Positions 4,798 to 19,974 of a DNA stretch of 64,000 bases are shown piece after piece. Source of the stretch: Frondihabitans sucicola (GTDB taxonomy: Bacteria; Actinomycetota; Actinomycetes; Actinomycetales; Microbacteriaceae); NCBI RefSeq assembly GCF_030296615.1, contig NZ_AP027732.1, positions 2,545,042-2,609,041 of the forward strand. The letters are read 5' to 3'. The notes under the pieces were generated by a model. It was not told where the DNA came from. It made no database searches and was given only the letters and a program-made list of their open reading frames with translations. Positions within the stretch are counted from its first letter, which is position 1. Every line of letters starts with the position of its first letter. A program made the position numbers and the translations under genes.

Positions 4798-5937
4798 TTG
4801 GAGAACCGGATGGATGGCGAATTTCCGGGCTTTGTCCCGAAGGTCTTGCTTGATCCTTCTATCGCGTTGTTTCGCGCCGAAGACCGCGTATTCGAGGCGA
4901 TGGTTGATGGTTGGACGTCGGAGATGCTGGCTCGTGGCAATCAGGTGTCAACGATCAAGGATCGCGTGAGCTTGCTCAGGCGGTTCCAGTCGTTTACCAA
5001 TGATTACCCGTGGATGTGGGGTCCAGGCGATATCAACGAGTTCGCGGCCGAGCGACTGTCCGGTGAGCGGCCGATCAAGCCCACAACCCTCCGCACCGAC
5101 TCGAATACGATCGCGATGTTCTGCTCTTATGTGTCTAATCCGGCCTACGGCTGGGTGGCCTTTTGCGAACGGACATTCGACTCAATTCCTTCACAAATCG
5201 TGTTCGAGTGGAACAGCCCGCACCACTCGGCCGACGATGCTGTTCCGACAGGCAAACGAGCTTTTACTAAGCCGGAGCTTCAGCTCATCTTCGACTATGT
5301 TGACGACCTCGCAGACAGTGAATATGCCCGTGGGTCCAAGCGCTGGCCGAACTTGCTCCGTGACTCCAATGCATTCAAGATCTGCTATGCCTACGGCCTT
5401 AGACGTCGGGAACTCACCATGCTCGACACTGTCGATTTCGGACCCAATCCATACGTCCCCGATTACGGCATGTTCGGCGCCCTCACCGTGCGTTGGGCCA
5501 AAGGGGTCAAGGGATCGGGTCCACGACGCCGAACGGTACTGACTGTCCCCGAGTTCGACTGGGTGGTCGAGCTAGCCGACAAGTGGATCAGCTCAGAACG
5601 CCGCGGACGTTTCTCTCACGCCGACGGATCGCTCGCCCTTTGGCCGAGTGAGCGGGGTAACCGCATCTCCCTCGGCACATTAGGCGACGCGTTCACCGCA
5701 GCTCGACGCGCCGTCGGCCTACCCGAAGATCTCGGCCTTCATTGCCTCCGGCACTCCTACGTCACGCACCTGCTGGAGGCGAAATATGACCCGCTGTTCG
5801 TTCAGCAGCAGGTCGGGCACGCCTACGCCTCCACCACGAGTCTCTACACCTCGGTGTCCGACAACTTCAAACAGAGAGCGGTCCAGGAAATGATTGCTGC
5901 ACGCGTTCCAGCCAAGACGGAGACTGCCCATGCCTGA
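4798..5937 (+). CDS. tyrosine-type site-specific recombinase/integrase (catalytically intact)
   Basis: C-terminal box II HCLRHSYVTHLLEAKYDPLFVQQQVGHAYASTTSLYTSV (HxLRH...LGH...Y); TTG at 4798 or ATG at 4810; stop overlaps the next start. Confidence 0.85.
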   Translation: MENRMDGEFPGFVPKVLLDPSIALFRAEDRVFEAMVDGWTSEMLARGNQVSTIKDRVSLLRRFQSFTNDYPWMWGPGDINEFAAERLSGERPIKPTTLRTDSNTIAMFCSYVSNPAYGWVAFCERTFDSIPSQIVFEWNSPHHSADDAVPTGKRAFTKPELQLIFDYVDDLADSEYARGSKRWPNLLRDSNAFKICYAYGLRRRELTMLDTVDFGPNPYVPDYGMFGALTVRWAKGVKGSGPRRRTVLTVPEFDWVVELADKWISSERRGRFSHADGSLALWPSERGNRISLGTLGDAFTAARRAVGLPEDLGLHCLRHSYVTHLLEAKYDPLFVQQQVGHAYASTTSLYTSVSDNFKQRAVQEMIAARVPAKTETAHA

Positions 5938-6283: not shown

Positions 6284-6668
6284 GCCAAAGCAGCCCGAGG
6301 ACCCGGAGCGCTTTCCGCTTGCCTGCGCGCGCTGTCATGAGCATCGGGCCCTGGCAGCTTTTTTCGGGACTGAAGGGAGCGTCTGCGTCAACTGCTACAT
6401 GAAAGCCAAGCGCACCCGTGGGGTCTGCGCCTGTGGGCACGAGGGGGTCCTTCCTGGCATGGTTGGGGGGCAGCCGGCGTGCCGAGCATGCAGCGGTGTA
6501 AAGCTCAACATCGACTGCGTCTCATGCGGAACCGAGGACGAACTCTATTCAGGTGGACGGTGCTGGAACTGCACACTCCGTGAAGCCGTGGATTCCGCCC
6601 TGACGAACCCGTCGACCGGCACAATCTCCCCGCGCTTGTCCCCCTGGCGACGGCACTCAAAGGGATGA
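6276..6668 (+). CDS. cysteine-rich (multi-CxxC, zinc-ribbon-like) protein of unknown function
   Basis: 130 aa with CARCHEH, CVNC, CACGH, CRAC, CVSC, CWNC motifs; overlaps both neighbours by a few nt (operon). Confidence 0.45.
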   Translation: MSRPKQPEDPERFPLACARCHEHRALAAFFGTEGSVCVNCYMKAKRTRGVCACGHEGVLPGMVGGQPACRACSGVKLNIDCVSCGTEDELYSGGRCWNCTLREAVDSALTNPSTGTISPRLSPWRRHSKG

Positions 6669-7747
6669 AGAGGGCAAACAGCGGGCTCACCTGGATTAGA
6701 CAGGATCACGTTCAGGCATTCCTCCGCACCCTCGCCACCTCAGACACGATCACTCAGGAGAGCCTTGATGCCCTCCCAAAAACGAAGACGCGCGAATACG
6801 TCCGCGGCCTCCTTGTCGAGCACGGAATCATCGTCACCCGCGACGACTATCTCGTCCGCTACACCGCGTGGTCCAACGAAGCCGTCGAGCGACTCGTCCA
6901 CGCGCCGGATAAAGCTATCGTGGTCCGCTACGTCCGGTGGCAGCACCTACGGCGCATGCAGCAGATGGACGAGGTGACGATCGGCACATTCCTTCGCTCG
7001 AAGCAGACCGTCACGGTTGCCATCGACTTTCTTAACTGGCTACATCATGAGGGAGTGCTCTTCGCGGACGTCCGTCAAGCGCATCTCGACGAGTGGATTA
7101 ACACTGGACCTTCGACACGAAAGATCGCCAATCGATTCCTTCGTTGGGCTATCAAGACCCGTCTCGTAAAGCCCGACTTGACAATTGCACCGCACCGGCG
7201 TGGCACGGCCGAGCGACTGGATGCTTCGGCTCAAGGAGCCGCCCTTGAACGCGTCGTCCATACCGACGAGCTGGCGCCCCGTGAGCGAATAGCGGCGACG
7301 CTCGTCCTCGTCTTCGGCCAGCAGGTTCGAGACATCGTGACCCTTACCTGGGACCGGGTGCGCATCGAAGACGGTCTCGTCACAATTCGCATGGGCGGGT
7401 TCGACATCGACCTCCCGGCTCCCCTCGACGAGCCATGGCGGCAGCTTGCGGCCCACTCGCCGAACATGCAGACCGCGGCCCACCCGCATAGCTCTTGGGT
7501 CTTCCCCGGGACCAAGCCCGGCTATCACGTCAACCCGAGTCACATGCGGAACCGGCTAAAGCAATACTTCAGCGCACGCGCCGCGCGCCTTGGTACCCTC
7601 CACGAACTCTCCAAACTCGGCCCGATCCCTGTGATCGCCGACGCACTCGGCTATCGGCCGCAAACCATTGAGGCTCACGCAAAAGACTCCGCCTCCGCCT
7701 ACGCCCGCTATGTCGCGTCGATTCGCAGTGAAGACCAGCCAGATTGA
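6665..7747 (+). CDS. tyrosine recombinase-like protein, probably catalytically degenerate
   Basis: N-terminal SAM-like core-binding domain (QAHLDEWI...), catalytic-domain start ...GQQVRDIVTLTWDRVRIEDGLVTIR...DLPAPL, but box II reads HELSKLG...LGYRP...YARY (conserved Arg replaced by Ser, His by Tyr). Confidence 0.55.
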   Translation: MKRANSGLTWIRQDHVQAFLRTLATSDTITQESLDALPKTKTREYVRGLLVEHGIIVTRDDYLVRYTAWSNEAVERLVHAPDKAIVVRYVRWQHLRRMQQMDEVTIGTFLRSKQTVTVAIDFLNWLHHEGVLFADVRQAHLDEWINTGPSTRKIANRFLRWAIKTRLVKPDLTIAPHRRGTAERLDASAQGAALERVVHTDELAPRERIAATLVLVFGQQVRDIVTLTWDRVRIEDGLVTIRMGGFDIDLPAPLDEPWRQLAAHSPNMQTAAHPHSSWVFPGTKPGYHVNPSHMRNRLKQYFSARAARLGTLHELSKLGPIPVIADALGYRPQTIEAHAKDSASAYARYVASIRSEDQPD

Positions 7748-7833: not shown

Positions 7834-9649
7834 TCAGCTGAGTCCCGCTTCCAGCCGAATACGGGCAAGATCCCTATGCTCGGGTATCCCGGTGATTGAC
7901 CATGGCTCCGGAACGACAAGGTCATTTTTTAGAAGTTCAGAACTATAGATCCGGAACGGGGTTCCATCCATGGGCTCCAGTCTGATATTCATGCCCTTTG
8001 CCGTGCCGCCCAAGAGTCGCCTTCGCACCTCGTCGGCATCCGCGATTTTCATCCTTGGGTGAAAAATGTTTGGTTCGGGTATTAAGACTGGATTGTCCAG
8101 CACGTTGACGCCTGAACCTTCTCCCCGGAAACGCTCCGGTTTAAGATGGCACCTCCCGCGTCCAGCAAGACCATCAGGCCCTCGTCCATTGAGCCGCTGA
8201 GAGTGGCTTTCATCGAAGAATAGTTAGGGATGAGGGCGCATTTTCCTTCCAGCAGCATCCGTGCGATCCGCGTCCAAATACGCTCCGCAGCCTCAGGCAA
8301 CTCCTGCGGAAAAGCGAAGGTCACATCGCCCAACTTCTCGATCACAGACAAGTCCTCGGCATACTCGCTCAATTTTGGGTCAGCCGCTCTTAGGTCTGCC
8401 CCCTGTGGGAGCGCCGCGCTGACCGACTTTCCACTCAGGGTGAGCCGGAGTCGTTGAGCCCGAGGAAGGGTGTCCATAAAGCGAACTACCCGGTTGACGG
8501 CCACGCCGGACCGTCCCACAGCATCAAAGGTCATGTCTGTGGAACCAGAAAGGCTGTCTCGTGGGAAGCGCCAGAACATTGAAAGGACTTCTTCGAAGGA
8601 CACCTCGATAAAGCCGCCTTCCGTGCCGTTCCCCACATCGGTGCTCGTGCCAGTAAGCCCGCCAAGGTGCGTGCCGTCAGCGGCGTATGAGTCGATGCGG
8701 GCTGGTTCACCTTGGTGAGCGTCACGAACGGGGATTACCGAGACTGCATAGCCGCTCTCCGTCCCCGAAAACCAGTCGGCCGGCCCGTCATAGACCAGTG
8801 AATGGACGTTCTGCTCCGGCAAGTCGAGACGCGTGCCCCGTCCGTAGCCGAACACATCTTTCGTCAGTTTTGCCAGTTCCGCATCCTCACGGCCGAACAA
8901 CATGTTGACCGTGATCGACAGCGGTTCCATGTCCGCTGCGTCTTCCCTCTTCGCGTACAATTCCCACCCTGGCAATCCGTCGACGACAGCCAGTCGGCGA
9001 CCCCAGTACAGGCTGAAAGTGTTCTGGTCGGCAATGTACCGAGCTAGCCCGTCGTGGGCCTCTTGAAGAGTTCTAGGTGCTGCATCCTTATGGCCAATCC
9101 TTGAAAGGGCCAAGTCCACCGCGCTGCGCACGCTCCAGTCTTGGACGTCGGGATGTTTGGCGAGGAGTCTGTCCAGCTCAACGGAGCCAAGAATGTGAGT
9201 TCGAATCGAGGTGCCATCGCTCAGCTTCGAAACCCACTTTTGTTCGGCGTCCGTAAACTCTTCTGGCACCACCAAGGTCCAGTCCGGCATGCCCAGGGCT
9301 GTCGCTGTCGTGAACGACTTCTTGATTTGCTTGCGTCGACTGTCACGCCAGCCCCCGAAAAGCCTTCAGGGAAATGCTTCAGTTGAAACACATGGACGAC
9401 TGAACCAGATGTCTTGTCCCGAAAGACGATGTCGATGCCGCCGTCACCGCCGCGGCCGCTGGGTGCCGAAGCGGCGTATCCGAGGGCGTCACCGTCACGA
9501 GTGATAAGCACGTTCACGATTCGCTCGAAGTCCTCGCGGGAAATTGTCCGCCACTGAACTTTTTCGACCACGGACTCTCCCCCATTGCAGCACTGCGTCA
9601 ATCGTATCGGCGCCAACGCACTGACCAGGGACGAGACGAAATGCCTCAC
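7834..9649 (-). CDS. Mrr-like PD-(D/E)xK restriction-endonuclease N-terminal domain fused to a ~450-aa domain of unknown function; two apparent single-base frameshifts (~9354 in a G6/C6 run, ~8106)
   Basis: N-terminus ...SREDFERIVNVLITRDGDALGYAASAPSGRGGDGGIDIVFRDKTSGSVVHVFQLKHF (D-GGIDIV...QLK = Mrr catalytic motif); three successive frames join into one ~600-aa protein if one base is restored at each junction; lower GC than surroundings. Confidence 0.5.
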
Positions 9650-9832
9650 CCTGACGAGGAGGCAGACGCGTCTCCGCGAGATGGAGAACGCTGTTCCGTA
9701 CGTCGCACTGGCGCGATCGCAGCACGTCGCTCAGTTGTCGTTGGCATTTCGTCGCAGCCGGCGATTTGACTCCGCCGCTGTCACCCAAGCGGCGATCCTT
9801 CAAAGCGCATTCTTAGGCGAGGGGCGTCGTTC

Positions 9833-10351
9833 CTAGTTGGTTCCGGTGACGGTGCTGCGGCGTTCGAGGAAGACGTTGTCTCGCCACTGTCCTGCCCACG
9901 GGCCGAAGCTCATCCGCCCAATGCGTTCCCGGATGCCGACCTCTCGGAATCCGTGGGCGGCATGAAGGGCGAGGCTTCCGCGGTTCTCGGGGAAGACCGC
10001 GGATTGAATCATCCAGACTCCCGCTGCTTCGGATGTGGTGATGAATTCCGCCAGGAGCAGGTGGCCAACCCCGGCACCGCGGGCGTTCTTGGAGACATAG
10101 ATGGAGTGCTCGATGACCCCCTGATACACCGGCCGCGACGACACGCTCGACGCGGCCGCCCACCCGACGACGTTGTCCTGCGTGTCCACGGCGACGAGTC
10201 GGAGTCCTCGAATTTTTCCGCCATCGAACTCCTCCCAGGACGGAGGCTTGTCCTGGAAGGTCGCGTTACCCGACGCGATGCCCTCGGCGTAAATCCGTTC
10301 GACGGCAGGCCAGTCGCCCGCCTTCATCGCACGGATCGTCACCTCGGTCAT
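9833..10351 (-). CDS. GNAT family N-acetyltransferase (phosphinothricin acetyltransferase-like)
   Basis: MTEVTIRAMKAGDWPAVERIYAEGIASGNATFQ...RGAGVGHLLL; ATG 10349-10351. Confidence 0.8.
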   Translation of the reverse strand: MTEVTIRAMKAGDWPAVERIYAEGIASGNATFQDKPPSWEEFDGGKIRGLRLVAVDTQDNVVGWAAASSVSSRPVYQGVIEHSIYVSKNARGAGVGHLLLAEFITTSEAAGVWMIQSAVFPENRGSLALHAAHGFREVGIRERIGRMSFGPWAGQWRDNVFLERRSTVTGTN

Positions 10352-10697
10352 GCCGGGTTGAGGGTCCGACTGCTGGCGGTGAGGGCGGCGAAGTCGGCAC
10401 GGTAGTACGCCCATTTGCCGCGCTGTTCGCGGATGGCAAGGCCGGCGTCGACGAGCTGCTTCATGTGATGCGACACCGTGGGCTGCGACAGCCCGACCGG
10501 TGCCGTGAGGTCACAGATGCAGGCTTCCCCGTAGGGCTTGCCGCGATGAGTGACAGGAGCCGCACTCGGGTGGGATCGCCGAGCGCCTTGAACACCTTGG
10601 CGACGTCTTCCGCTGCGGACGCCGTGAGGGCGTCCTCACTGGTCGGGGCGCAGCACGCCGCGTCGGTGGGCGCGAGAAGCGAGGCACTGGTGGTCAT
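10348..10697 (-). CDS. arsR: ArsR/SmtB family metalloregulator (apparent single-base frameshift ~10543)
   Basis: MTTSASLLAPTDAACCAPTSEDALTASAAEDVAKVFKALGDPTRVRLLSLIAA then +1 frame GKPYGEACICDLTAPVGLSQPTVSHHMKQLVDAGLAIREQRGKWAYYRAD; stop overlaps the GNAT start (ATGA). Confidence 0.7.
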
Positions 10698-10721
10698 GGC
10701 CTCATTCTGCCAGTCGCATTG

Positions 10722-10760
10722 ACATCTGTCGATGTATCGAGCACAGTCGATGTATTGATT
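10722..10760. promoter_or_regulatory. repeated 12-13 bp near-palindromes (GTCGATGTATCGA / GTCGATGTATTGA) in the divergent arsR / arsO promoter region; candidate ArsR operator
   Basis: seen directly between starts at 10697 (-) and 10785 (+). Confidence 0.4.
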
Positions 10761-10784
10761 GTTGTCGATCCGAGGAGTTTTCCC

Positions 10785-12101
10785 GTGTCTGATCTTCCCG
10801 TTGTCGTCATCGGCGCCGGCCCGCAGGGCCTTGCCGCTGCCGCCCACCTTCTCGAACGTGGCCTTGACCCCCTGGTACTCGAAGCTGGCGACGGCCCGGC
10901 GGCCGCTGTGAATGAGTGGGGCCACGTCCGGCTGTTTTCGGACTGGTCAGAACTCGTCGACACCACGGCCGGCCGGCTGCTTGAAGGAACCGGATGGACG
11001 GCTCCGGCGAAGGGCTACCCGACCGGAGCGCAGTGGATCAGCCGCTACCTCTCGCCTCTCGCTGAGGCGTTGGGTGACCGGGTGCGGTACGGCACCACCG
11101 TGACTGGTATCGGTCGGCAGGGCCGTGACCGGCTGGTGGATGCGGGCCGAAGCGAGCAGCCCTTCACCGTTCACGTCAACGCCGGCGGGACCGAGGAACG
11201 CATCACCGCTCGTGCTGTCATCGACGCGTCGGGAACCTGGTCGACCCCGAACCCGCTGGGCGCCGACGGTCTCCCCGCCCTCGGCGAGAAGGCAGCGGCC
11301 GCGTTCATCTCCGATCGCATCCCTGACTTCCACGACCATGACCGGTTCGCCGGCAAACACACGGTCGTCGTGGGCAGTGGGCACTCCGCGGCGACCGCGA
11401 TCAACGAACTCACCCGCGTCGCCAAACAGCACCCCGATACCCGCATCACATGGGTCCTTCGTCGAGGTGGCGTTGGGAACACATTCGGTGGCGGCACGGC
11501 CGACGAGCTGCCCGAGCGCGGAGCCCTCGGCGCTCGTGCGCAGAAGTCCGTCGAGGCGGGGATCGTGGATCTCGTCACCGGGTTCCGCGTCGAACGAATC
11601 AACACCACCGACACCGGCGCCGTCCTCATCTCCGAAGACGGACGCGCCCTGCCCGAGGCAGACCTCGTCGTCGCCCTGACCGGGTTCCGACCCGACCTGT
11701 CGTTCCTGTCGGAGGTGCGCCTCGAGCTGGATGCCACGTTGCAGGCACCCATCCGAATCGCGGCGGAGGTCGACCCCAACGTACATAGCTGCGGGTCCGT
11801 CCGAGCCACCGGAGCTGCGGACCTGGCACAACCGGAACAGGATTTCTACCTCGTCGGCGCGAAGTCCTACGGCCGCGCGCCCACGTTCCTGGCGATGACC
11901 GGATACGAGCAGATCCGCAGCGTCGTCGCGGAACTGGCCGGCGACCACGAGGCCGCCGCCCGCATCGACCTCATCCTCCCTGACACCGGCGTGTGTGGCG
12001 GGGCAGGGTTGTTCGACGACCCCACCGGCGCCAGAGGCGGCGCCTGCTGCGCCCCTGCATCGACACTTCTGCAGATCGGCCGTGCCCCCGTCACCGCTTG
12101 A
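10785..12101 (+). CDS. FAD/NAD(P)-binding oxidoreductase (ArsO-like flavin monooxygenase family found in actinobacterial ars clusters)
   Basis: GTG start 8 nt after a GAGGAG RBS; VVVIGAGPQGLAAAAHLLERG dinucleotide-binding motif, second GxGxxA (VVVGSGHSAATAI). Confidence 0.65.
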   Translation: MSDLPVVVIGAGPQGLAAAAHLLERGLDPLVLEAGDGPAAAVNEWGHVRLFSDWSELVDTTAGRLLEGTGWTAPAKGYPTGAQWISRYLSPLAEALGDRVRYGTTVTGIGRQGRDRLVDAGRSEQPFTVHVNAGGTEERITARAVIDASGTWSTPNPLGADGLPALGEKAAAAFISDRIPDFHDHDRFAGKHTVVVGSGHSAATAINELTRVAKQHPDTRITWVLRRGGVGNTFGGGTADELPERGALGARAQKSVEAGIVDLVTGFRVERINTTDTGAVLISEDGRALPEADLVVALTGFRPDLSFLSEVRLELDATLQAPIRIAAEVDPNVHSCGSVRATGAADLAQPEQDFYLVGAKSYGRAPTFLAMTGYEQIRSVVAELAGDHEAAARIDLILPDTGVCGGAGLFDDPTGARGGACCAPASTLLQIGRAPVTA

Positions 12102-12116
12102 GCGAACCAGTCGCCG

Positions 12117-12791
12117 CTAGGCGGGGGCGAGACGGGGCGCAAGTTCCTGGATGCGGTGTTCGAGGTCCGTGAAAGCGGCCTCGAATGCCGCATCCGTGCC
12201 CAGACGGACAGGGTCGGGGATCGACCAGTGCAGCCCGGACGGGACGGAGAGTTCCTCATGGGCGTTGTCGCAGACCGTGACCACGAAGTCATCCGGCGCG
12301 AGAACGTCAGAGAGCATTTGCGGGGTGGCCTCTTGCAGGTTCAGGTGGTGCCGCTTCGCTGCCCGGATAGCGCCCGGTTCGACGCGCTCGGCGGGGTGAG
12401 TTCCCCCGGATGCGGCAGGGATACTGCTGGCGCTGGCCCACAGCGCTGCGGCGAGCTGTGACCGGGCGGAGTTCCCGGTGCAAACGAACACAACCCGGTG
12501 GCCGGCGACCGAGGATGTCGGAGTCAGCCCCGACAAGGAACCTGGGGCGAGGTGGAGATAGCTGCGCCTGCGGTCGCCCTCTGACCGGACCCGAACCAGA
12601 ATGCCCACGCCTTCCAGCACCTTCAGGTGATGCGCCACGAGGTTCGAGGGCATGCCGAGCTGCTGGCTCATGTCGGTCGGGGAGACATCCCCAAGGGTTA
12701 ACAGGTCGACGATCCGTAGGCGTGCCGGATCGGCCAGGGCGGCATGTTTCGCAGCCCGCGCCTCGATCATCTCTGTTAGCTCAGCGTTCAT
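12117..12791 (-). CDS. arsC: ArsR HTH fused to LMW-PTP-type arsenate reductase (ArsR-ArsC fusion)
   Basis: N-terminus RLRIVDLLTLGDVSPTDMSQQLGMPSNLVAHHLKVLEGVGIL (ArsR HTH); C-terminus VVFVCTGNSARSQLAAALW (CX5R P-loop of LMW phosphatase/ArsC). Confidence 0.8.
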   Translation of the reverse strand: MNAELTEMIEARAAKHAALADPARLRIVDLLTLGDVSPTDMSQQLGMPSNLVAHHLKVLEGVGILVRVRSEGDRRRSYLHLAPGSLSGLTPTSSVAGHRVVFVCTGNSARSQLAAALWASASSIPAASGGTHPAERVEPGAIRAAKRHHLNLQEATPQMLSDVLAPDDFVVTVCDNAHEELSVPSGLHWSIPDPVRLGTDAAFEAAFTDLEHRIQELAPRLAPA

Positions 12792-12831
12792 TACCTCAAT
12801 CTTGACTGAGGTACCGTCTTGGCGTCAAGAT

Positions 12832-13587
12832 GTGCAAGTGCCCTTCTTGACCCCGATCCCACGCACCGATCTCCTGCGCCGCCTGCTGGCGGAGCTGCTC
12901 GGGACGGCTCTTCTGGTGACGGTCGTTGTCGGTTCGGGGATCATGGCCCAGCAGCTCAGCCCGCGCGACGTCGGGCTGCAACTGCTGGAGAACAGCCTCG
13001 CTACCGCTTTCGGCCTGACGGTTCTGATCCTGATGCTCGGTCCGATCTCGGGGGCGCACTTCAACCCGGTGGTCACGCTGGCGGACTGGGCTCTTGGCCG
13101 TCGCACCCGCACCGGGCTCCGTTCAGCGATGGTCCTTCCCTACGTTGTCGCGCAGGTCGTTGGGGCGATCCTCGGAGCAGTCCTGGCGAACACCATGTTC
13201 GACACCCGCACGACCATCGCAACCACGCACCGCGCCACTGGCGGGCATCTCCTCGGGGAGATCGTCGCCACGGCAGGGCTGATCCTGGTGATCTTTGCCC
13301 TCGCACGCACCGGCCGCGGGGCCCTGGCTGCTCCTGCGGTCGGGGCGTACATCGGGGCGGCGTATTGGTTCACCAGCTCGACTTCGTTCGCGAACCCTGC
13401 CGTGACCATCGGCCGGATCTTCACCGACACCTTCGCCGGCATCGCCCCCACCTCCGCCCCCGCCTTCATCGGCGTCCAGCTGGTGGGAGCCGCGGTCGGC
13501 TGTGCCCTGCTTCTCGTTCTCTATCCCGACGTCGCCCGGTCCGCCGACGACGTCGTCATCCCGCACCTCGACCAGGCGTCCGCCTGA
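12832..13587 (+). CDS. aquaporin/aquaglyceroporin (MIP family) arsenite channel
   Basis: two NPA boxes (SGAHFNPVVT and SFANPAVT); six TM helices; GTG start after the divergent arsRC start. Confidence 0.8.
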   Translation: MQVPFLTPIPRTDLLRRLLAELLGTALLVTVVVGSGIMAQQLSPRDVGLQLLENSLATAFGLTVLILMLGPISGAHFNPVVTLADWALGRRTRTGLRSAMVLPYVVAQVVGAILGAVLANTMFDTRTTIATTHRATGGHLLGEIVATAGLILVIFALARTGRGALAAPAVGAYIGAAYWFTSSTSFANPAVTIGRIFTDTFAGIAPTSAPAFIGVQLVGAAVGCALLLVLYPDVARSADDVVIPHLDQASA

Positions 13588-13608
13588 CCCGCCCCGAAAG
13601 GCCCTCTC

Positions 13609-14991
13609 ATGCATCTCGTTGCCATCGGCGGATCGGACGCCGGCATCTCCGCCGCCCTCCGCGCCCGCGAACTCGACCCGTCCGTAGACGTGACCGTGGT
13701 CGTCGCGGACGCTTACCCGAACTTCTCCATCTGCGGGATTCCGTACTTCTTCTCCCGCGAAGTGCAGCCCTGGCAGTCCCTCGCTCACCGCACCCATGCC
13801 GACCTCGAAGCGACCGGGATGAACCTCCGGTTGGAGACGTTCGCGACGTCGATCGACGTCGTAGGTCACCGCCTCGCCGTCCGCGCCCTCGACGGCACCG
13901 GATCCCTCATCGCCTACGACGCCCTCATGGTCGGCACCGGGGCGCTGCCCTCCCGCGCCGGCATCGACGGCCTCGACATCCTGGGGCCGGACGACGGGGT
14001 GCACGTCATCCACTCCATGGGCGACACCTTCGCCCTCGACCGGTTCCTCGAGACCCGGAACCCTGAGACCGCGATCATCGTCGGCGCCGGCTACGTGGGC
14101 CTTGAAATGGCGGAAGCGTTCACCGTCCGCGGCATCAAGACGACCCAGATTCAGCGCGGTCCGGAAGTGCTCTCCACCCTCGACCCCGAACTCGGCGCCC
14201 TCGTTCACACTGAACTCACCGACCACGGCGTCACCGTCCTCACGGACACCATCGTGAACCGCATCGACAAAACCGGCGACAGCCTCACCGTCAGCGCCAC
14301 CCACCAGGGCACCCCCGTCACCCACACGGCCGACGTTGTCCTGGTTGTCGTCGGGGTCCGCCCGAACACGGACCTCCTCGAGCGCGCCGGCGCGACGCTT
14401 GGTGCTGGCCGGGCGGTCGTCGTCGACGACACGATGCGGACGGGTCTTCCCGACGTGTTCGCGGCCGGTGACGGGGTCACCACCCACCACCGCCTCCTCG
14501 GCTTGACGTATCTCCCTCTCGGGACGACGGCTCACAAGCAGGGCCGCGTCGCCGGCGAGAACGCCCTCGGTGGCACCGCCCGGTTCGCGGGATCCGTCGG
14601 CACTCAGGTCGTGAAAGTGTTCGACCTCGTCGCCTCCCGGACCGGCCTTCGCGAACACGAAGCCGCCGCTGCCGGGTTCGCCCCCGTCAGCACGACCGCG
14701 ATCGCGGATGACCACAAGAAGTACTACCCGGGCGCGCAACCGATCTCGATCCGCGTCACCGGCGACAGCCGCGACGGCAAACTCCTCGGCGCTCAGCTCG
14801 TCGGCCGTCTTGGCACCGAGACCGCCAAACGCGTCGACACGTACGCCGTCGCCTTGCACGCCGGCCTCACCGTGGAGCAGGTCAGCGAACTCGACCTCTC
14901 CTACACACCACCGCTCGGTTCCCCGTGGGACGCGGTGCAGATCGCCACCCAGGCATGGTCCCGCGAGCACCGCCAGGCGGTGACCGCATGA
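13609..14991 (+). CDS. FAD-dependent pyridine nucleotide-disulfide oxidoreductase (NADH oxidase / CoA-disulfide reductase-like)
   Basis: MHLVAIGGSDAGISAAL...IIVGAGYVGLEMAEAF...AAGDGV; 460 aa two-Rossmann architecture. Confidence 0.75.
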   Translation: MHLVAIGGSDAGISAALRARELDPSVDVTVVVADAYPNFSICGIPYFFSREVQPWQSLAHRTHADLEATGMNLRLETFATSIDVVGHRLAVRALDGTGSLIAYDALMVGTGALPSRAGIDGLDILGPDDGVHVIHSMGDTFALDRFLETRNPETAIIVGAGYVGLEMAEAFTVRGIKTTQIQRGPEVLSTLDPELGALVHTELTDHGVTVLTDTIVNRIDKTGDSLTVSATHQGTPVTHTADVVLVVVGVRPNTDLLERAGATLGAGRAVVVDDTMRTGLPDVFAAGDGVTTHHRLLGLTYLPLGTTAHKQGRVAGENALGGTARFAGSVGTQVVKVFDLVASRTGLREHEAAAAGFAPVSTTAIADDHKKYYPGAQPISIRVTGDSRDGKLLGAQLVGRLGTETAKRVDTYAVALHAGLTVEQVSELDLSYTPPLGSPWDAVQIATQAWSREHRQAVTA

Positions 14992-15380
14992 CCGACAAGC
15001 CCACCGTCTTGTTCATCTGCCAGCACAACGCCGGCCGCTCCCAACTCGGCGCAGCCCTCCTCGAACACCTCGCCGGAAACGACTACACGGTCACCTCAGC
15101 GGGGATCGCGCCCGACAAGACAGTGAACCCGGCCGTCGCGGCGAGTATCGCGGAGCTGGGGATGGACATCAGCCAGCGGGAACCGCGGGCCGTCACCGTC
15201 ACCGACCTCCAAGAGGCCGACGTCGTCGTCCTCATGAAGCCTGGCCTAGTCTTGCCGAGCACGCCCGCGGGACGGGTGTTGGAGTGGTCCTTCCCGAATC
15301 CGGAGAACTGGGACGTGGACTCCGTCCGGCCCTTGAGGGAAGCGGTCGCGGCGCGCATCACCTCCGACCTGTTCGCCTGA
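14988..15380 (+). CDS. arsC: arsenate reductase, LMW protein-tyrosine-phosphatase family
   Basis: MTDKPTVLFICQHNAGRSQLGAALLE (CX5R); ATGA overlap with the upstream gene. Confidence 0.8.
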   Translation: MTDKPTVLFICQHNAGRSQLGAALLEHLAGNDYTVTSAGIAPDKTVNPAVAASIAELGMDISQREPRAVTVTDLQEADVVVLMKPGLVLPSTPAGRVLEWSFPNPENWDVDSVRPLREAVAARITSDLFA

Positions 15381-15400
15381 CGCTATGACCTGGAGGGGAG

Positions 15401-16069
15401 CTAGTCGTCCTCTTCCGCTTCGCGTTCACCGGTCAGCACGGATACGGGAACGGTGCAGCTGTCGCCCTTCCATGCCTCGACGCCTTCTTTGACGGCGAAG
15501 CCGACGACGACGAGGGCTGCGATGGGGTCGGCCCAGGTCCACCCGAACAAGCTGTTGAGCAGGAGCCCGACGAGGACCGCCGCGGACAGGTAGGCGCAGA
15601 TGAGGGTCTGTTTGGAGTCGGCGATCGCGGACGCCGATCCCAGTTCTCGTCCGGTGCGGCGTTCGGCAAGGCTCAGGGCAGGCATGATCAGCAAGCTGAT
15701 GACGGTGAGGACGATGCCGATGGGGCTGTGCTCGGCCTGACGGACGCCTGTTAGCGACAGGGCGGCGTCGATGGTGACGTAGATCGCGAGAGCAAAGAAC
15801 GAAATTGCGATGACGCGGAGGGCGGTCCGCTCCCTGGCCTCGGGATCGCGGGCGGTGAATTGCCAGGCGATTGCCGCGGCGGAGAGGACTTCGACGATGG
15901 AATCTAGGCCGAAGCCGACGAGGGCTGCGGAGGAGGCCATGGTACCGGCGGTGATCGCGACGACCGCCTCGATGGCGTTGTAGGTGATGGTCGCCGCGAC
16001 GATCAGCCGTATCCGGCGGCGTAAGATCCGGGTACGAGGCGGGACAGCGAGGGCTTCGGTGCTGGTCAT
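15401..16069 (-). CDS. cation diffusion facilitator-like membrane protein (short form lacking the cytoplasmic domain)
   Basis: TM protein with LVGFGLDSIVEV, ADSKQT, WADPIAALVV motifs typical of the CDF TM core; ATG overlaps the upstream CDF stop. Confidence 0.6.
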   Translation of the reverse strand: MTSTEALAVPPRTRILRRRIRLIVAATITYNAIEAVVAITAGTMASSAALVGFGLDSIVEVLSAAAIAWQFTARDPEARERTALRVIAISFFALAIYVTIDAALSLTGVRQAEHSPIGIVLTVISLLIMPALSLAERRTGRELGSASAIADSKQTLICAYLSAAVLVGLLLNSLFGWTWADPIAALVVVGFAVKEGVEAWKGDSCTVPVSVLTGEREAEEDD

Positions 16070-16998
16070 GCGTGGTCCGTTCCGGGTTCGTGGGCGGTGT
16101 GGCCGGCGGGTTCGAGTTGGAAGGTGCTGTGCTCGACGTCGAAATGGCCGACCAGGCACGCTTGCAGTTCGTCGAGGACTCGGGGTGCGTGGCCGTCCTG
16201 GAAGCACTCGTCCGTCAGGGTCACGTGCGCTGACAGGGCGGGGAGGTCCGAGGTGACGGTCCACGCGTGGAGGTCGTGGATTGCGAGAACGTGGGCGGGT
16301 TCGAGTAGGTGCCCTCGGATGGCGTCAAGGTCCACACCTTCTGGGGTGCCCTCGAGGAGGATGCGGCCGGAGTCTTTCAGCAGCCCCCACGCCGCATGCA
16401 GCATCAAGACCACAACGATCAGGGAGGCGATGGAGTCGGCGCGGGTGAAGCCGGTGACGAGGATGACGATCCCGGCGACGACGGTGGCGATGAACCCATA
16501 CAGGTCGGTGAGGATGTGCTGGAAGGACCCTTCGACGTTCAGGCTCTGACGGTTGGCTTTCGCTAGCACCCACACGGCGACGAGGTTCACGGCCACTCCG
16601 AGGAGCGCGACGACGAGGACCGGGCCGCCTTCGACCTCGGGTGGGTCGAGGAGGCGTCGGATGGCTTCGACGGCGACGATGCCACTGATGACGACGAGGG
16701 TGACGCCATTCACCGCGGCGGAGAGGATCTCGGCGCGCTTCAGCCCGAATGTCCACCTTGAGCTGCTGGGGCGGGCAGCGAGTCGGATCGCGACGAGCGA
16801 CCCGGCGAGGGCGGCGGCGTCGGTGAGCATGTGACCGGCGTCCGAGAGCAGTGCCAGCGAGCCGGAGATGATGGCGACGATGACCTCGATGAGGAGGAAA
16901 CCGACGATCAGGGCCAGGGCGATGCTGAGGAGCCGGGTGTTCGCGTCGGGGGCGGCCCCGTGGCTGTGTGCTTTGTCGTGCTGGTGGGTGTCGGTCAC
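16066..16998 (-). CDS. cation diffusion facilitator (CDF) family metal efflux transporter (CzcD/ZitB-like)
   Basis: His-rich N-terminus THQHDKAHSHG, LLSDAGHMLTDAAALAGSL, C-terminal cytoplasmic domain; GTG start overlaps the regulator stop (GTGA). Confidence 0.8.
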   Translation of the reverse strand: MTDTHQHDKAHSHGAAPDANTRLLSIALALIVGFLLIEVIVAIISGSLALLSDAGHMLTDAAALAGSLVAIRLAARPSSSRWTFGLKRAEILSAAVNGVTLVVISGIVAVEAIRRLLDPPEVEGGPVLVVALLGVAVNLVAVWVLAKANRQSLNVEGSFQHILTDLYGFIATVVAGIVILVTGFTRADSIASLIVVVLMLHAAWGLLKDSGRILLEGTPEGVDLDAIRGHLLEPAHVLAIHDLHAWTVTSDLPALSAHVTLTDECFQDGHAPRVLDELQACLVGHFDVEHSTFQLEPAGHTAHEPGTDHA

Positions 16999-17400
16999 TG
17001 GTCGGTTCCGGTGGTCTCGGGGTGGATCGCGACCGTGTGACCGGTGTGGGTGAGCCCGAGGTCGAGGAGCATCCGGACGTGGCCGTCGTCGAGGCGGTAG
17101 TACGCCATCCGCCCACGACGTGCGACCGACACCACCCGGTGCGCCCGAAGGAGCCGGAGTGCGTGACTGACAGAGCTTTCGCTCATCGCCGTTGTCGCCG
17201 CGAGATCGCACACACATCTCACCGCCTTCGAGAAGAGACATCAGAAGGCGAAGCCGGCCTGGGTCGCCGAGAAGAGAGAACACGTCCGCCAGCTCGACGA
17301 CGTCTTCCGCGTCGGGCAGGCTGCGTCGAACCAGGTCGACCTTGTCCGGGTCGACCATCTTCAGCTCGCAACTATCGATGCTCGCCAGATCGCTCGCCAT
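16995..17400 (-). CDS. ArsR/SmtB family metalloregulator (NmtR/KmtR/CzrA-like) with a 2-bp frameshift inside a (TG)n run at ~17213
   Basis: DVFSLLGDPGRLRLLMSLLEGGEMCV then CDLAATTAMSESSVSHALRLLRAHRVVSVARRGRMAYYRLDDGHVRMLLDLGLTHTGHTVAIHPETTG; restoring TG in ATGTGTGTG(TG)CGAT joins the frames. Confidence 0.7.
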
Positions 17401-17726: not shown

Positions 17727-17900
17727 ATGCTCCAGCTGTCGATTGAGATCCCTGCTGCCGCGGGCTACGCAATCGGATTCGCCGTCGCAACAGGCATCAT
17801 CGCGACCGCCATCCGTACCGCGTGGCCCGTGCTGAACGACAAGGCTGCACGCCGCGTCGCTCGCATGCACCGGGCGAAAGCCGCTCGCAAGAGCGACTAG
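17727..17900 (+). CDS. small hydrophobic protein (57 aa), hypothetical
   Basis: GGAGG 6 nt upstream of ATG; MLQLSIEIPAAAGYAIGFAVATGIIATAIRTAWPVLNDKAARRVARMHRAKAARKSD (one TM helix + basic tail); below the ORF-track size cutoff. Confidence 0.35.
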   Translation: MLQLSIEIPAAAGYAIGFAVATGIIATAIRTAWPVLNDKAARRVARMHRAKAARKSD

Positions 17901-18070
17901 CTCAAAAAACGCACCCCTCCATCGTTAAGGAGAGCTCTGTCTTCAGGTGTGCAACAAACGACCGTCCACGAGACAGTCACGCAGAGCTGCTCAAGAGTCG
18001 GCGCGTCATGTCCCATGGCCCGTGTCCGCGACCTATGTTCCGTAAGACACGTTCGAGGTACAGTTCTGCC

Positions 18071-18637
18071 ATGGCATCCGTCGGCTACGCCCGCGTCTCC
18101 ACCCAAGAGCAGAACCTCGACGCACAAACGGACGCCCTCGAGGCGGCCGCCTGCGACAAGGTGTTCGTCGAGCATGCCTCCGGGGTTCTCGCGAAACGGC
18201 CCGCCCTGGATGATGCCCTCGACTACCTCCGCGAAGGCGACACTCTAGTCGTCACGAAACTCGACCGACTCGGCCGCTCCGTCCGGAACCTGAAAGAGAT
18301 CGCTAACGGACTCGAGCGCCGCGGCGTTGGCCTCAGAGCCCTGTCGCAGGGCATCGACACGACCACCCCCGGCGGCCGGCTGTTCTTCCACATGCTCGCG
18401 GCCATTGCGGAGTTCGAGCACGACCTCATCGTCGAACGCACGAAGGACGGTTTAGCTGCCGCCCGAGCCCGCGGCCGAAAAGGCGGCGGGCGTTCAAAGA
18501 TGACCGCCACGAAAGCCAAGCAGGCCCGAGCGATGTACGACGAGAAGACCTATACCGTCCAGCAGATTGCTGACACCTTCGGCGTCTCACGCGGCACCAT
18601 CTACCGGCACCTCGAAGAAGACATCAGCTCCATTTAG
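18071..18637 (+). CDS. serine recombinase (resolvase/invertase, Hin/Gin/Pin family)
   Basis: MASVGYARVSTQEQNLDAQTDALE... catalytic Ser in YARVST; C-terminal HTH YTVQQIADTFGVSRGTIYRHL. Confidence 0.85.
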   Translation: MASVGYARVSTQEQNLDAQTDALEAAACDKVFVEHASGVLAKRPALDDALDYLREGDTLVVTKLDRLGRSVRNLKEIANGLERRGVGLRALSQGIDTTTPGGRLFFHMLAAIAEFEHDLIVERTKDGLAAARARGRKGGGRSKMTATKAKQARAMYDEKTYTVQQIADTFGVSRGTIYRHLEEDISSI

Positions 18638-18864: not shown

Positions 18865-19974
18865 TCAAAACGACCAAGGATCCAGGCGCGTGATGGCGAG
18901 TACGGCGGAGTCATCCGCATTGCCCACGAAGCCTCCACCCACCGATATTTCCCCTTGCCATGCAATTGTCGCGCCGACGCGGCACTTTTCAATTTCCGGA
19001 AGGCGGAGGCGAGTTCTGTCGAAAAGAAGTTCGCCGTCATCGTCGGTCGCCGCTTCGCGGATAGTTCGGTCACCCATGTCGAAGATGAAATTGTGATTCT
19101 CAGTTTGCACGTGCCAGAGACCTTGGTCGTTGTCGCGCAACTCAACGATCTGCTGCCCGATGTGGACGACGTCAGTGATTTCCGAAGGACTTTGACTCAA
19201 GGGAAATAGCTCTCCGACGCCCTGGGCCAAGAATGCAAGGCTGTCAAAGATATCGACCGCAATCATCAACGCGCTGCCGGAGTGAGTCTCGATGCTGATT
19301 TGATCTCCTCGACTGGCAACGTCGGCGACCAGGTCGGTGAATTGGCCAGAAGCGTCGTGGACGGAAATCGATCGTCGCGCAGGGAACTGTCCCGATGGCG
19401 TCACGTCGGCCTCACTCTCCGATGTGAGGGAGCTTCTCTCGTCGAGACGGTAGATCCCCGTGACGGCTGATCTAGAGGATCTCTGCGTCACTTCCCCTAT
19501 CCGGGCAGTAGACCAGGTCGCCACGGCTCCGACGCTGACCTCGACAATGGCGCCGAAGCCTTCACGTCCCATTGGGGTTCCACCACTTCCCGTCCGCTGG
19601 CCATAGAGCTGCCGGGCATCCATGTCGAAGATGAACAACTCGTCAGAGGTTCCGACCTTCCACGTGCCGGAGTCGGAATCGTAGAGATCTGTGATGGAGT
19701 CCCAGCGCGAGGTGTGCATGCCCGCATCGACGCGCTGGATATCGGGCTGGTTGAGAGCGACCAGCTCGGTGACGAGCGGGATCCAGGGTGCGAGATAGCT
19801 GGACGGGAGGAGAACGGCTCCGCCCCATCGTGACGTCGCCAAGATGGGTTCGCATCGGGAGATCACCGACGCGAGCACGCGCTCCAGGCCCTGCTGTATG
19901 TCGACTGCGGGTCTCGTCAGCACAATCGCCTCCCTGTGAGTCGGGAGATGGTCGTCCGCGAACCTCGTTGCCAC
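18865..19974 (-). CDS. hypothetical protein with two internal repeats (hFIFDMxxR motifs)
   Basis: 369 aa; LYDSDSGTWKVGTSDELFIFDMDARQLYG and NDQGLWHVQTENHNFIFDMGDRTIREA; last gene of a translationally coupled operon; low GC. Confidence 0.45.
   Translation of the reverse strand: MATRFADDHLPTHREAIVLTRPAVDIQQGLERVLASVISRCEPILATSRWGGAVLLPSSYLAPWIPLVTELVALNQPDIQRVDAGMHTSRWDSITDLYDSDSGTWKVGTSDELFIFDMDARQLYGQRTGSGGTPMGREGFGAIVEVSVGAVATWSTARIGEVTQRSSRSAVTGIYRLDERSSLTSESEADVTPSGQFPARRSISVHDASGQFTDLVADVASRGDQISIETHSGSALMIAVDIFDSLAFLAQGVGELFPLSQSPSEITDVVHIGQQIVELRDNDQGLWHVQTENHNFIFDMGDRTIREAATDDDGELLFDRTRLRLPEIEKCRVGATIAWQGEISVGGGFVGNADDSAVLAITRLDPWSF

Follow-up and report, generated by a model that had tools for sequence, protein, structure and literature searches.

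A Microbacteriaceae-type arsenic-resistance cluster with an HTH::LMW-PTP fusion and two flavoproteins on a putative island of Frondihabitans sucicola

This report concerns a group of genes at positions 10348-15380 of a 64-kb stretch of Frondihabitans sucicola DNA (the window; all coordinates are counted from its first base). Open reading frame (ORF) listing and profile searches against Pfam and NCBIfam are the basis of the gene calls between 9833 and 15380. All the genes that an earlier reading of the bare sequence (the original prediction) had listed at 10348-15380 were recovered, at essentially the coordinates it gave, and the region is a genuine arsenic-resistance (ars) locus. Judged from its relatives in other genomes, the cluster has a common Microbacteriaceae arrangement and is no rarity, which bears out its earlier description as actinobacterial. 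Abbreviations used for the gene products are helix-turn-helix (HTH), low-molecular-weight protein tyrosine phosphatase (LMW-PTP) and CoA-disulfide reductase (CoADR). The cluster comprises the following features.

9833-10351, minus strand: GNAT N-acetyltransferase, ArsN1a-like (phosphinothricin/arsinothricin acetyltransferase family), 172 amino acids, from profile and PDB matches
10348-10697, minus strand: arsR (ArsR/SmtB family; CgArsR1-like, Rv2640c-like), with a 1-nt deletion at about 10527-10533
10698-10784: control region between arsR and flavoprotein 1, from the sequence
10785-12101, plus strand: flavoprotein 1, an NAD(P)/FAD protein with two dinucleotide-binding domains, of an uncharacterised family, 438 amino acids (Pyr_redox_3, 3e-18)
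12117-12791, minus strand: ArsR-type winged HTH fused to a two-Cys LMW-PTP arsenate-reductase domain, 224 amino acids (Pfam HTH_20/HTH_5 and LMWPc)
12792-12837: bidirectional control region of 46 bp between the fusion gene and the MIP gene, from an inverted-repeat search
12838-13587, plus strand: MIP-family channel of about 249 amino acids, the presumed As(OH)3 conduit (PF00230, 105 bits)
13609-14991, plus strand: flavoprotein disulfide reductase of the CoADR/Nox/Npsr family (CoADR-like), 460 amino acids (Pyr_redox_2, 3.4e-48, and dimerisation domain)
14988-15380, plus strand: single-Cys LMW-PTP, ArsC-like, 130 amino acids (LMWPc, 3.5e-13)

The cluster is made of two conserved modules, module A (9833-12101), in which arsR and the GNAT gene face flavoprotein 1, and module B (12117-15380), in which the fusion gene faces the MIP, CoADR-like and LMW-PTP genes. 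A genome scan with the CoADR-like protein yielded at least 80 loci, each in a different species, with 72-96% identity; nearly all of them are in Microbacteriaceae, with a Mycolicibacterium plasmid, a Propionibacteriaceae metagenome-assembled genome and Promicromonospora among the exceptions. An LMW-PTP or fusion gene was present within 7 kb of the CoADR-like gene in all 80 loci. The MIP gene lay directly upstream of it in 58 of 79 loci and a single-Cys LMW-PTP gene directly downstream in 48 of 78, and near it were found the fusion (55/80), an ArsR gene (52/80), flavoprotein 1 (38/80), the GNAT gene (25/80) and an SBF/Acr3-like carrier (5/80). The same four-gene module occurs on plasmids of Rathayibacter and Agreia, with about 76% DNA identity. 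Because the CoADR-like gene was in an ars context in 80 of 80 loci, and flavoprotein 1 was paired with arsR in 38 of 80, across a conserved operator region, both flavoproteins belong to ars clusters; the concern that they might come from unrelated pathways was not borne out.

The fusion encoded at 12117-12791 matches HTH_20 over residues 19-67 (E = 6.7e-9, 36 bits for a cut-off of 27), HTH_5 with 28.3 bits (cut-off 22) and LMWPc over residues 100-217 (E = 4.7e-15). It scored 48.7 bits with the NCBIfam model HTH_metalloreg, slightly under the cut-off of 55, and its LMW-PTP part scored 40.8 bits with TIGR02691 (cut-off 174.3). In a homologue search, 7335 of 8000 scored candidates matched; the best 120 were 60-100% identical, mostly about 224 amino acids long with both domains, came in their majority from Microbacteriaceae, and were named either 'ArsR family transcriptional regulator' or 'arsenate reductase/protein-tyrosine-phosphatase family protein'. 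An exhaustive search among 50%-identity representatives gave 174 clusters at E <= 1e-30. That the fusion might be an artefact of assembly or of a frameshift was rejected, given the thousands of homologues of 224 amino acids that hold both domains. Proteins 100% identical to the fusion and to flavoprotein 1 are recorded from Frondihabitans sucicola.

The fusion contains two cysteines only, Cys104 and Cys174, both in the LMW-PTP half, with none in residues 1-103. No conserved Cys was found in the HTH part of 52 of the 52 locus homologues, and 67 of 90 diverse full-length representatives had none at all in this part, whereas Cys104 (in the CX5R-S loop) and Cys174 (the Cys82 equivalent) were each present in 85 of these 90. 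The P-loop VCTGNSARS is invariant in the family and the HWS[IV]PDP motif with its Asp is conserved; the Cys89 equivalent is absent from the fusion (TVCDNAHEE) and from its representatives. The AlphaFold model (predicted local distance difference test score, pLDDT, 86.8; predicted template modelling score, pTM, 0.77) consists of helices alpha1-alpha4 and a wing (beta-hairpin), a Pro/Gly/Ser linker at residues 82-94 and an LMW-PTP domain at residues 95-223. It contains no alpha-5 helix, the linker standing in the place of alpha-5 of ArsR/SmtB proteins. Foldseek gave the arsenate reductases 1JL3, 8P5N and pI258 as top matches for the C-terminal half, and found no two-domain structural relative. 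As the HTH part has neither a cysteine nor alpha-5, neither known ArsR/SmtB metal site is present, and from sequence and model together the DNA-binding half appears ArsR-like in fold and devoid of a known metal site. The original prediction of an ArsR-ArsC fusion thus stands as regards the two domains in one polypeptide, which is a widespread architecture, and fails as regards an arsenite-sensing ArsR: the cysteine check that it had called for in both ArsR domains found Cys15, Cys16, Cys60 and Cys62 in the stand-alone ArsR and none in the HTH of the fusion, so that the ArsR-type metal site expected in the N-terminal part of 12117-12791 is absent. Since the HTH lacks a thiolate site, it would fall to the reductase domain to read the signal, if there is one. 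Conservation of the HTH residues equals that of the catalytic ones, and the fusion is likely an autoregulated repressor of the divergent operon.

The 46-bp spacer between the fusion and MIP genes contains a 10-2-10 palindrome, TACCTCAATC-TT-GACTGAGGTA (12792-12813), and an 8-bp inverted repeat, ATCTTGAC-N17-GTCAAGAT (12799-12831). A nearly invariant core, CTCAAT(C/A)TTGACTGAG ... GTCAAGA, is shared by about 40 loci (Rathayibacter, Microbacterium, Leifsonia, Agromyces, Naasia and others), across which the coding flanks have diverged to 55-70% protein identity; a 16-mer of the spacer occurs once in the window. From this pattern we infer a promoter assignment in which the 8-bp inverted repeat would form two overlapping, divergent, mirror-image promoters (-35 TTGAC, -10 CAAGAT). 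Each -35 would lie opposite the -10 of the other, with the start codons placed where leaderless or near-leaderless mRNAs would begin, and the 10-2-10 palindrome would be the predicted operator over both promoters.

The identification of the second flavoprotein as CoADR-like was confirmed. It scored 313.1 bits with TIGR03385 (cut-off 578.8) and 295.1 bits with NF007123 (cut-off 458), and its PDB relatives are 6RUZ, 6PFZ, 3CGB, 3NTD and 8A56, at about 40% identity. Its sole cysteine, Cys42, lies beside the FAD in the motif N[FY]SICGIPY, is invariant in 77 of 77 homologues, and belongs to a segment (SICGIPY) that aligns with CGLPY of 6RUZ. The QRG that follows the second Rossmann strand is also invariant, which is a hint of NADPH use.

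The second LMW-PTP gene is likewise present where it had been predicted, and its ATG overlaps the stop codon of the CoADR-like gene (ATGA), an arrangement that implies translational coupling. The closest PDB entries to its product are Cg_ArsC1' (3T38, 80 bits) and then Cg_ArsC2 (3RH0, 61 bits); the score with TIGR02691 was 43.7 bits (cut-off 174.3). The P-loop ICQHNAGRS is invariant in the family, and MKPG replaces the distal GCGDVC pair of Cg_ArsC1'. This distal Cys pair was missing from all 52 close homologues in genomes (at least 50% identical), which have one Cys, in the C[QT]HNAGRS loop, and from all 62 metagenomic ones, while the more distant paralogues in the clusters (n = 75) keep the thioredoxin-type distal pair. 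The window therefore encodes the single-Cys LMW-PTP and the two-Cys fusion only, with no three-Cys, thioredoxin-type ArsC.

In a reciprocal test, 22 of 62 metagenomic single-Cys LMW-PTP genes followed a CoADR-like gene, at least 17 followed a fusion gene with MIP and CoADR-like genes divergent from it, and some followed MIP alone; among the 25 loci that were well flanked (at least 2.5 kb on both sides), 19 had a CoADR-like gene. One cysteine in the flavoprotein, one in the reductase and the ATGA overlap between their genes together suggest that the CoADR-like protein may recycle the LMW-PTP.

Two side observations were made in the related loci. Many of them (L013, L018, L033, L036, L049, L070 and others) have three or four tandem paralogues of three-Cys arsC before the CoADR-like gene and one single-Cys copy after it, and compared with these loci the window is unusual in having zero three-Cys copies. 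In several Microbacterium ars clusters (for example locus L030, 6010-6954), a gene for a PstS-type phosphate-binding-like lipoprotein lies between the ArsC array and the CoADR-like gene, which hints that arsenate/phosphate discrimination may be built into those clusters.

The gene at 12838-13587, for which GTG at 12832 is an alternative start, had been called an aquaglyceroporin with both NPA boxes. It does encode a MIP channel, whereas its first box, at residue 76, reads NPV (NPV or NPL in all relatives) and its second, at residue 186, reads NPA; the residue that follows the latter is Val, not the usual Arg, a property common to the relatives. The protein remained under every NCBIfam subfamily cut-off (aquaglyceroporin Gla, 37 bits for 400; AqpZ, 68 for 256), and its PDB matches, AqpM, AQP3, AqpZ, NIP2-1 and GlpF, were all weak and roughly equidistant. 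Neither the aquaglyceroporin label nor an assignment to AqpN could be upheld: the profile and PDB comparisons were indecisive and the paper on AqpN gives no diagnostic residues.

The absence of an ArsB/Acr3 pump was confirmed for the 64-kb window. None was found by tblastn with an Acr3-like SBF protein encoded on a Rathayibacter plasmid as query, and a hydropathy screen of all window ORFs, combined with Pfam, returned only a histidine kinase, Lnt, TatC, UppP and a CDP-alcohol transferase, and no pump. Because no ArsB/Acr3 is encoded there, the MIP channel is the only As(OH)3 exit encoded locally, and by analogy with AqpS (PMC6205960) the predicted exit of arsenite through it would hold. In the nearest relative, F. 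cladoniiphilus, the gene order is the same, with 87% DNA identity, and about 2.2 kb are present in addition between the LMW-PTP gene and the neighbouring cation-diffusion-facilitator (CDF) gene (window 15332-15396, compared with 8723-10967 of its locus). Two transporters are encoded in this segment, an SBF-family carrier that matches ACR3 faintly (39.5 bits for a cut-off of 283) and a His-rich EamA/DMT protein. As the sister species has an SBF carrier at the place of the gap in the window, the pump-less state is a recent loss or a local difference between sister species and not a design feature.

In module A, flavoprotein 1 was found not to be the 'ArsO-like' flavin monooxygenase that had been proposed. 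Its GTG start at 10785, which is preceded by an AGGAG ribosome-binding site, gives 438 amino acids and a protein 100% identical to the NCBI product. The curated ArsO model NF040505 gave 63.6 bits for a cut-off of 425, over the N-terminal half only (model positions 3-186 of 346), and the nearest fold to its AlphaFold2 model, which is of moderate quality (pLDDT 66.8), was Bdr/YpdA (7A76), followed by the class-B N-hydroxylases SidA/PvdA. A Cys in the FAD motif GGGPCG is the defining feature of Bdr/YpdA. Flavoprotein 1 has Gln in place of this Cys, in an invariant GAGPQG, and scored 59.7 bits with the YpdA model TIGR04018 (cut-off 339.9); assignment to Bdr/YpdA was rejected on these two grounds.

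Four cysteines are invariant in flavoprotein 1, Cys358, Cys426 and the pair Cys443-Cys444 (numbering of the 460-residue ORF), and lie in a C-terminal tail modelled as disordered by AlphaFold. The N-terminus of ArsR (10650-10660, the presumed As(III) site) and this tail (12040-12060) share the motif A-C-C-A-P, with a Cys pair that is near-invariant in both families, which suggests that the tail may also bind trivalent arsenic.

The arsR gene lies opposite flavoprotein 1, as expected of the predicted divergent ArsR, and its four cysteines are invariant, whereas its frame is broken by a 1-nt deletion. The frame switches just upstream of the CICDL motif, tblastn gave two high-scoring pairs in different frames, and DNA alignment with the intact, 93%-identical F. 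cladoniiphilus gene showed that exactly one base is missing. From the sequence, arsR would be either a pseudogene or a sequence error. The repaired ArsR has 116 amino acids and, by the Cys census of its homologues, invariant Cys15, Cys16, Cys60 and Cys62; it passes HTH_metalloreg (89.7 bits, cut-off 55) and scored 96.1 bits with NF041413 (cut-off 155). Its closest PDB match is C. glutamicum ArsR1 (6J0E), with which the N-terminal Cys-Cys aligns, and it has an extra CxC in alpha-3.

The ATG of the GNAT gene overlaps the arsR stop codon (ATGA, 10348-10351), and it is to this stop codon that the start coordinate of the original prediction, 10348, belongs. The top family match of the acetyltransferase was ArsN1a (NF040503, 126.5 bits, under the cut-off of 170), ahead of ArsN1b and PAT, and its closest PDB relatives are PAT-type acetyltransferases such as 4JXQ; the gene adjoins arsR/flavoprotein 1 in 25 of 80 loci. 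The spacer between arsR and flavoprotein 1 contains a perfect -35, TTGACA (10718-10723), and two copies of a palindrome, TCGAT-GT-ATCGA at 10729-10740 and a second at 10747-10758. These TCGAT-N2-ATCGA sites sit between -35 and -10; the motif is kept in the same spacer of more than 30 loci and occurs only here within the window. A promoter scan placed a promoter-like site for arsR at 10732-10704.

The ars cluster lies inside a low-GC stretch of the window (about 4.6-23.5 kb; GC about 60%, compared with 69%), in which the following further features were found.

4798-5937 and 6665-7747: two tyrosine recombinases
15401-16069, minus strand: short YdfM-like CDF gene, adjoining the ars cluster
16066 to about 17000, minus strand: CzcD/ZitB-like CDF gene, adjoining the ars cluster
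17822-18637: serine resolvase
19976-20857: metallophosphoesterase

Several ORFs of the stretch, for example 8082-9290 and 18865-19974, had no Pfam match. Since the remainder of the window encodes housekeeping proteins (TatC, Lnt, UppP), we read the low-GC stretch of about 19 kb as a mobile integrative island in the F. sucicola chromosome; neither a flanking tRNA gene nor flanking repeats were found at the island, and a protein identical to the fusion is labelled 'plasmid' in one source. With two CDF genes beside the ars cluster, the island combines resistance to metals and to metalloids. A frameshift was also found in the SmtB/CzrA-like regulator that lies upstream of the CzcD-type CDF gene (ORFs 16995-17222 and about 17223-17400, minus strand), caused by a 2-nt deletion within the CVC codons at 17205-17222 compared with F. 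cladoniiphilus (ATGTGTG--TGCGAT instead of ATGTGCGTTTGCGAT); an apparent ArsR::CDF fusion ORF at 16066-17400 is a product of this frameshift only. Each of the two stand-alone ArsR-family regulators of the island is thus disrupted no more than a few codons away from its metal-binding Cys motif, which could reflect true repressor loss, slippage or assembly error.

Our preferred interpretation, to which we give a probability of about 0.7, is that the locus is a standard Microbacteriaceae-type ars cluster carried by an island, in which module B detoxifies arsenate, with the fusion as repressor and the CoADR-like protein as recycler, and module A probably deals with organoarsenicals. From the observed gene content, domain architecture, residue conservation, synteny and conserved control DNA we infer the biochemical steps and the roles of the two flavoproteins as follows. 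Module B would handle inorganic arsenate, which would arrive by phosphate uptake and be reduced by the LMW-PTP-type enzymes, and uncharged As(OH)3 would leave down its gradient through the MIP channel, following the logic of AqpS. The fusion would be bound as a repressor at the palindrome over both divergent promoters and would control its own gene together with the MIP/CoADR-like/LMW-PTP operon; its signal could be an arsenate-driven Cys104-Cys174 disulfide, or As(III) bridging both thiols. The CoADR-like flavoprotein would most likely be an NAD(P)H-driven recycler of the LMW-PTP, either directly, by an intermolecular disulfide, or by way of a low-molecular-weight thiol. Module A is probably an organoarsenical or arsinothricin-type detoxification pair under a CgArsR1-like As(III) sensor; given the arsR frameshift, it would be deregulated in this genome, unless the missing base is a sequencing error.

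A more specific proposal, which we regard as rather doubtful, is that the one-Cys CoADR-like protein and the one-Cys LMW-PTP form a self-contained NAD(P)H:arsenate reductase couple, and that the fusion with its Cys-free HTH is a catalysis-based arsenate sensor. In such a couple, Cys42 of the flavoprotein, or a thiol regenerated by it, would resolve the enzyme-arsenate adduct, and the fusion would answer arsenate itself through a single-turnover Cys104-Cys174 disulfide. To our knowledge, all characterised ArsR repressors sense trivalent arsenic. If true, the couple would be a further route by which LMW-PTP arsenate reductases are powered, beside thioredoxin, mycothiol/mycoredoxin and glutathione/glutaredoxin, and it would fit Microbacteriaceae, in which the main low-molecular-weight thiol is uncertain.

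Several observations weigh against the preferred interpretation. The association of the CoADR-like and LMW-PTP genes is strong, not obligatory: 6 of the 25 well-flanked LMW-PTP loci lacked a CoADR-like gene within 4 kb and 30 of 78 CoADR-like genes had no LMW-PTP gene directly downstream, and an obligatory pairing was thus weakened by the reciprocal metagenome test. CoADR/Nox enzymes could equally handle arsenic-induced thiol or oxidative stress. The CoADR-like protein would then be a general enzyme of this kind (CoA-disulfide or persulfide reductase, NADH oxidase/peroxidase), co-induced as arsenic depletes thiols, and the LMW-PTP would use cell thiols as Cg_ArsC1/2 do with mycothiol and mycoredoxin. 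We consider this explanation somewhat unlikely. It agrees with the incomplete pairing, with the one-Cys state that the LMW-PTP shares with the mycothiol-dependent Cg_ArsC2, and with the fact that the flavoprotein is a full-length member of the CoADR/Nox/Npsr family whose solved relatives, about 40% identical, act on CoA disulfide, persulfide or O2. However, all 80 close homologues of the flavoprotein are confined to ars clusters, its conservation across genera (72-96%) is above that of its neighbours and would be odd for a generic stress enzyme borne by an island, the ATGA overlap couples its translation to that of the LMW-PTP, and the latter has the Arg P-loop of the thioredoxin-type Cg_ArsC1' and not the Lys loop of Cg_ArsC2. 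That the LMW-PTP domains are arsenate reductases is itself not certain from their sequences. Both are far under the curated ArsC cut-offs (40-50 bits for 157-215), Foldseek also returned the phosphatases Wzb and YwlE, and the general-acid position of the stand-alone LMW-PTP is Asn here instead of the Asp of pI258 ArsC (D in 32 homologues, N in 18), all of which would suit phosphatases of proteins or small molecules in a cluster with another purpose. This is nevertheless very improbable, as every top match, by sequence or by fold, is an arsenate reductase (3T38, 1JL3, 8P5N, pI258), the family is named 'arsenate reductase/protein-tyrosine-phosphatase family protein' in the sources, and three-Cys ArsC paralogues, ArsR and an ArsN1-like GNAT stand alongside in related loci.

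Other points concern regulation, export and the integrity of the locus. The hexamers proposed for the fusion/MIP promoters were not called by a generic consensus promoter scan. The fusion might be chiefly an enzyme, an arsenate reductase tethered to DNA or left with a vestigial HTH, the operon being regulated by separate ArsR proteins: its P-loop CX5R(S), the Cys82 equivalent and the PDP Asp are all conserved, as they would be in a catalyst, and in a window that has no three-Cys ArsC it may be needed for catalysis. We hold this to be improbable, because the fusion has no third Cys that would make the disulfide accessible to thioredoxin, its HTH is conserved equally with the catalytic residues, its gene always stands opposite the MIP operon across the invariant palindrome, the sole other ArsR of the cluster is broken here, and ArsRC2 of Microbacterium sp. 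A33 is reportedly a negative regulator. The MIP protein cannot, from its sequence, be assigned to the known arsenite-conducting aquaglyceroporins, and the locus may be partly decayed, given the frameshifted arsR and the extra transporters of the sister species. Taken to its end, the latter argument makes the locus a decaying remnant and the strain one that has lost resistance, with both regulators frameshifted, by 1-nt and 2-nt deletions compared with F. cladoniiphilus, and the 2.2-kb segment with the SBF/Acr3-like and EamA pair absent. Such a remnant is quite improbable: neither the six structural genes nor the fusion regulator is disrupted, and each retains all of its conserved residues, repressor loss would lead to constitutive expression and not to loss of function, both indels are possibly assembly errors, and related loci have a MIP gene in 58 of 79 cases and an SBF carrier in only 5 of 80.

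As interpreted above, the locus adds one more genome to an arrangement that at least 80 actinobacterial species have, its type of fusion has been in the literature since 2006-2010, and the understanding of arsenic resistance is left unchanged. The Cys-free HTH on a two-Cys reductase, the one-Cys pair and the invariant bidirectional promoter are family-wide traits, and what we propose for them are hypotheses. The value of the locus is that of a clean minimal example, with no thioredoxin-type ArsC, no Acr3, one intact regulator, and one Cys each in the reductase and the adjoining flavoprotein. It would be a good test bed for the reductant of single-Cys ArsC in Microbacteriaceae and for arsenic sensing by a cysteine-free ArsR domain, and a compact arsenic-responsive biosensor switch could be built on the 46-bp bidirectional promoter, which is nearly invariant and contains a palindrome.

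Parts of the arrangement can be compared with described systems; our literature search found nothing relevant that links a CoADR-family enzyme with arsenate reduction, nor anything on this gene quartet. ArsR-ArsC fusions are on record in Leptospirillum ferriphilum, Microbacterium and Sinorhizobium (PMC6205960), and form two sequence clusters across several actinobacterial genera (PMC6514093). The ars cluster of Microbacterium sp. A33 (arsRC2, ACR3, arsC1, arsTX, arsC3; AM283030), from the same bacterial family, carries an 'ArsR-ArsC2 fusion' (PMC6514093, PMC6205960), like the HTH::LMW-PTP of the window. It differs by ACR3 efflux and the thioredoxin/thioredoxin-reductase pair arsTX; the window instead encodes a MIP channel and a 460-amino-acid CoADR-family flavoprotein, and no three-Cys ArsC. 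Achour-Rokbani et al. (2010) reportedly showed that ArsRC2 of this strain is a repressor of its own operon and that its ArsC3 lacks the two distal cysteines, as does the LMW-PTP of the window.

As regards export, AqpS substitutes for ArsB, and actinobacterial MIP::ArsC fusions have been described (PMC6205960). In the passages of PMC6205960 on Sinorhizobium meliloti arsR-aqpS-arsC-arsH (Yang et al., 2005), a MIP likewise replaces ArsB/Acr3 and As(OH)3 leaves by facilitated diffusion; the MIP of the window is of another lineage (NPV/NPA-V, 249 amino acids, not assignable to GlpF), the reductase is of another type, and the window has a flavoprotein disulfide reductase and no ArsH. The sections of PMC6205960 and PMC6514093 that treat the MIP::LMW-PTP ArsC proteins of Salinispora tropica and Frankia alni (Wu, Song and Beitz, 2010) and the Acr3::ArsC of M. 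tuberculosis present a similar coupling of conduit and LMW-PTP. In the window, channel and reductase are instead separate genes with the flavoprotein gene between them, and the LMW-PTP that is fused is joined to a DNA-binding domain and not to a channel.

The proteins of C. glutamicum are the nearest solved counterparts of two products. The LMW-PTP is nearest to the thioredoxin-coupled ArsC1' (3T38) and has the one-Cys state of ArsC2 (3RH0), but it lacks Cys162 and Cys166 of ArsC1' and keeps an Arg P-loop where ArsC2 has Lys; the repaired ArsR has its nearest counterpart in CgArsR1 (6J0E), with which its N-terminal Cys pair aligns, and adds the alpha-3 CxC. Flavoproteins linked to ars genes, of unknown or presumed redox function, are also found as arsO and arsT on pHZ227 of Streptomyces sp. 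FR-008 (Wang et al., 2006), according to the part of PMC6514093 devoted to them, where the function of ArsO and ArsT is given as still unknown. Flavoprotein 1 differs from them in matching ArsO only in its N-terminal half and in its extra Cys-rich tail, and the second flavoprotein of the window is a CoADR/Nox protein of 460 amino acids, not a low-Mr thioredoxin reductase. The CoADR, Npsr and CoA-persulfide reductases, including CoADR-rhodanese fusions (3NTD, 3ICR, 8A56), resemble this second flavoprotein by the one Cys beside the FAD, the same fold and about 40% identity, although the window protein remains under the equivalog cut-off and its partner is a separate LMW-PTP, not a rhodanese. By analogy with these fusions, in which a CX5R-type Cys-loop domain is joined to the flavoprotein, the CoADR-like protein would be coupled here to the CX5R loop of the LMW-PTP.

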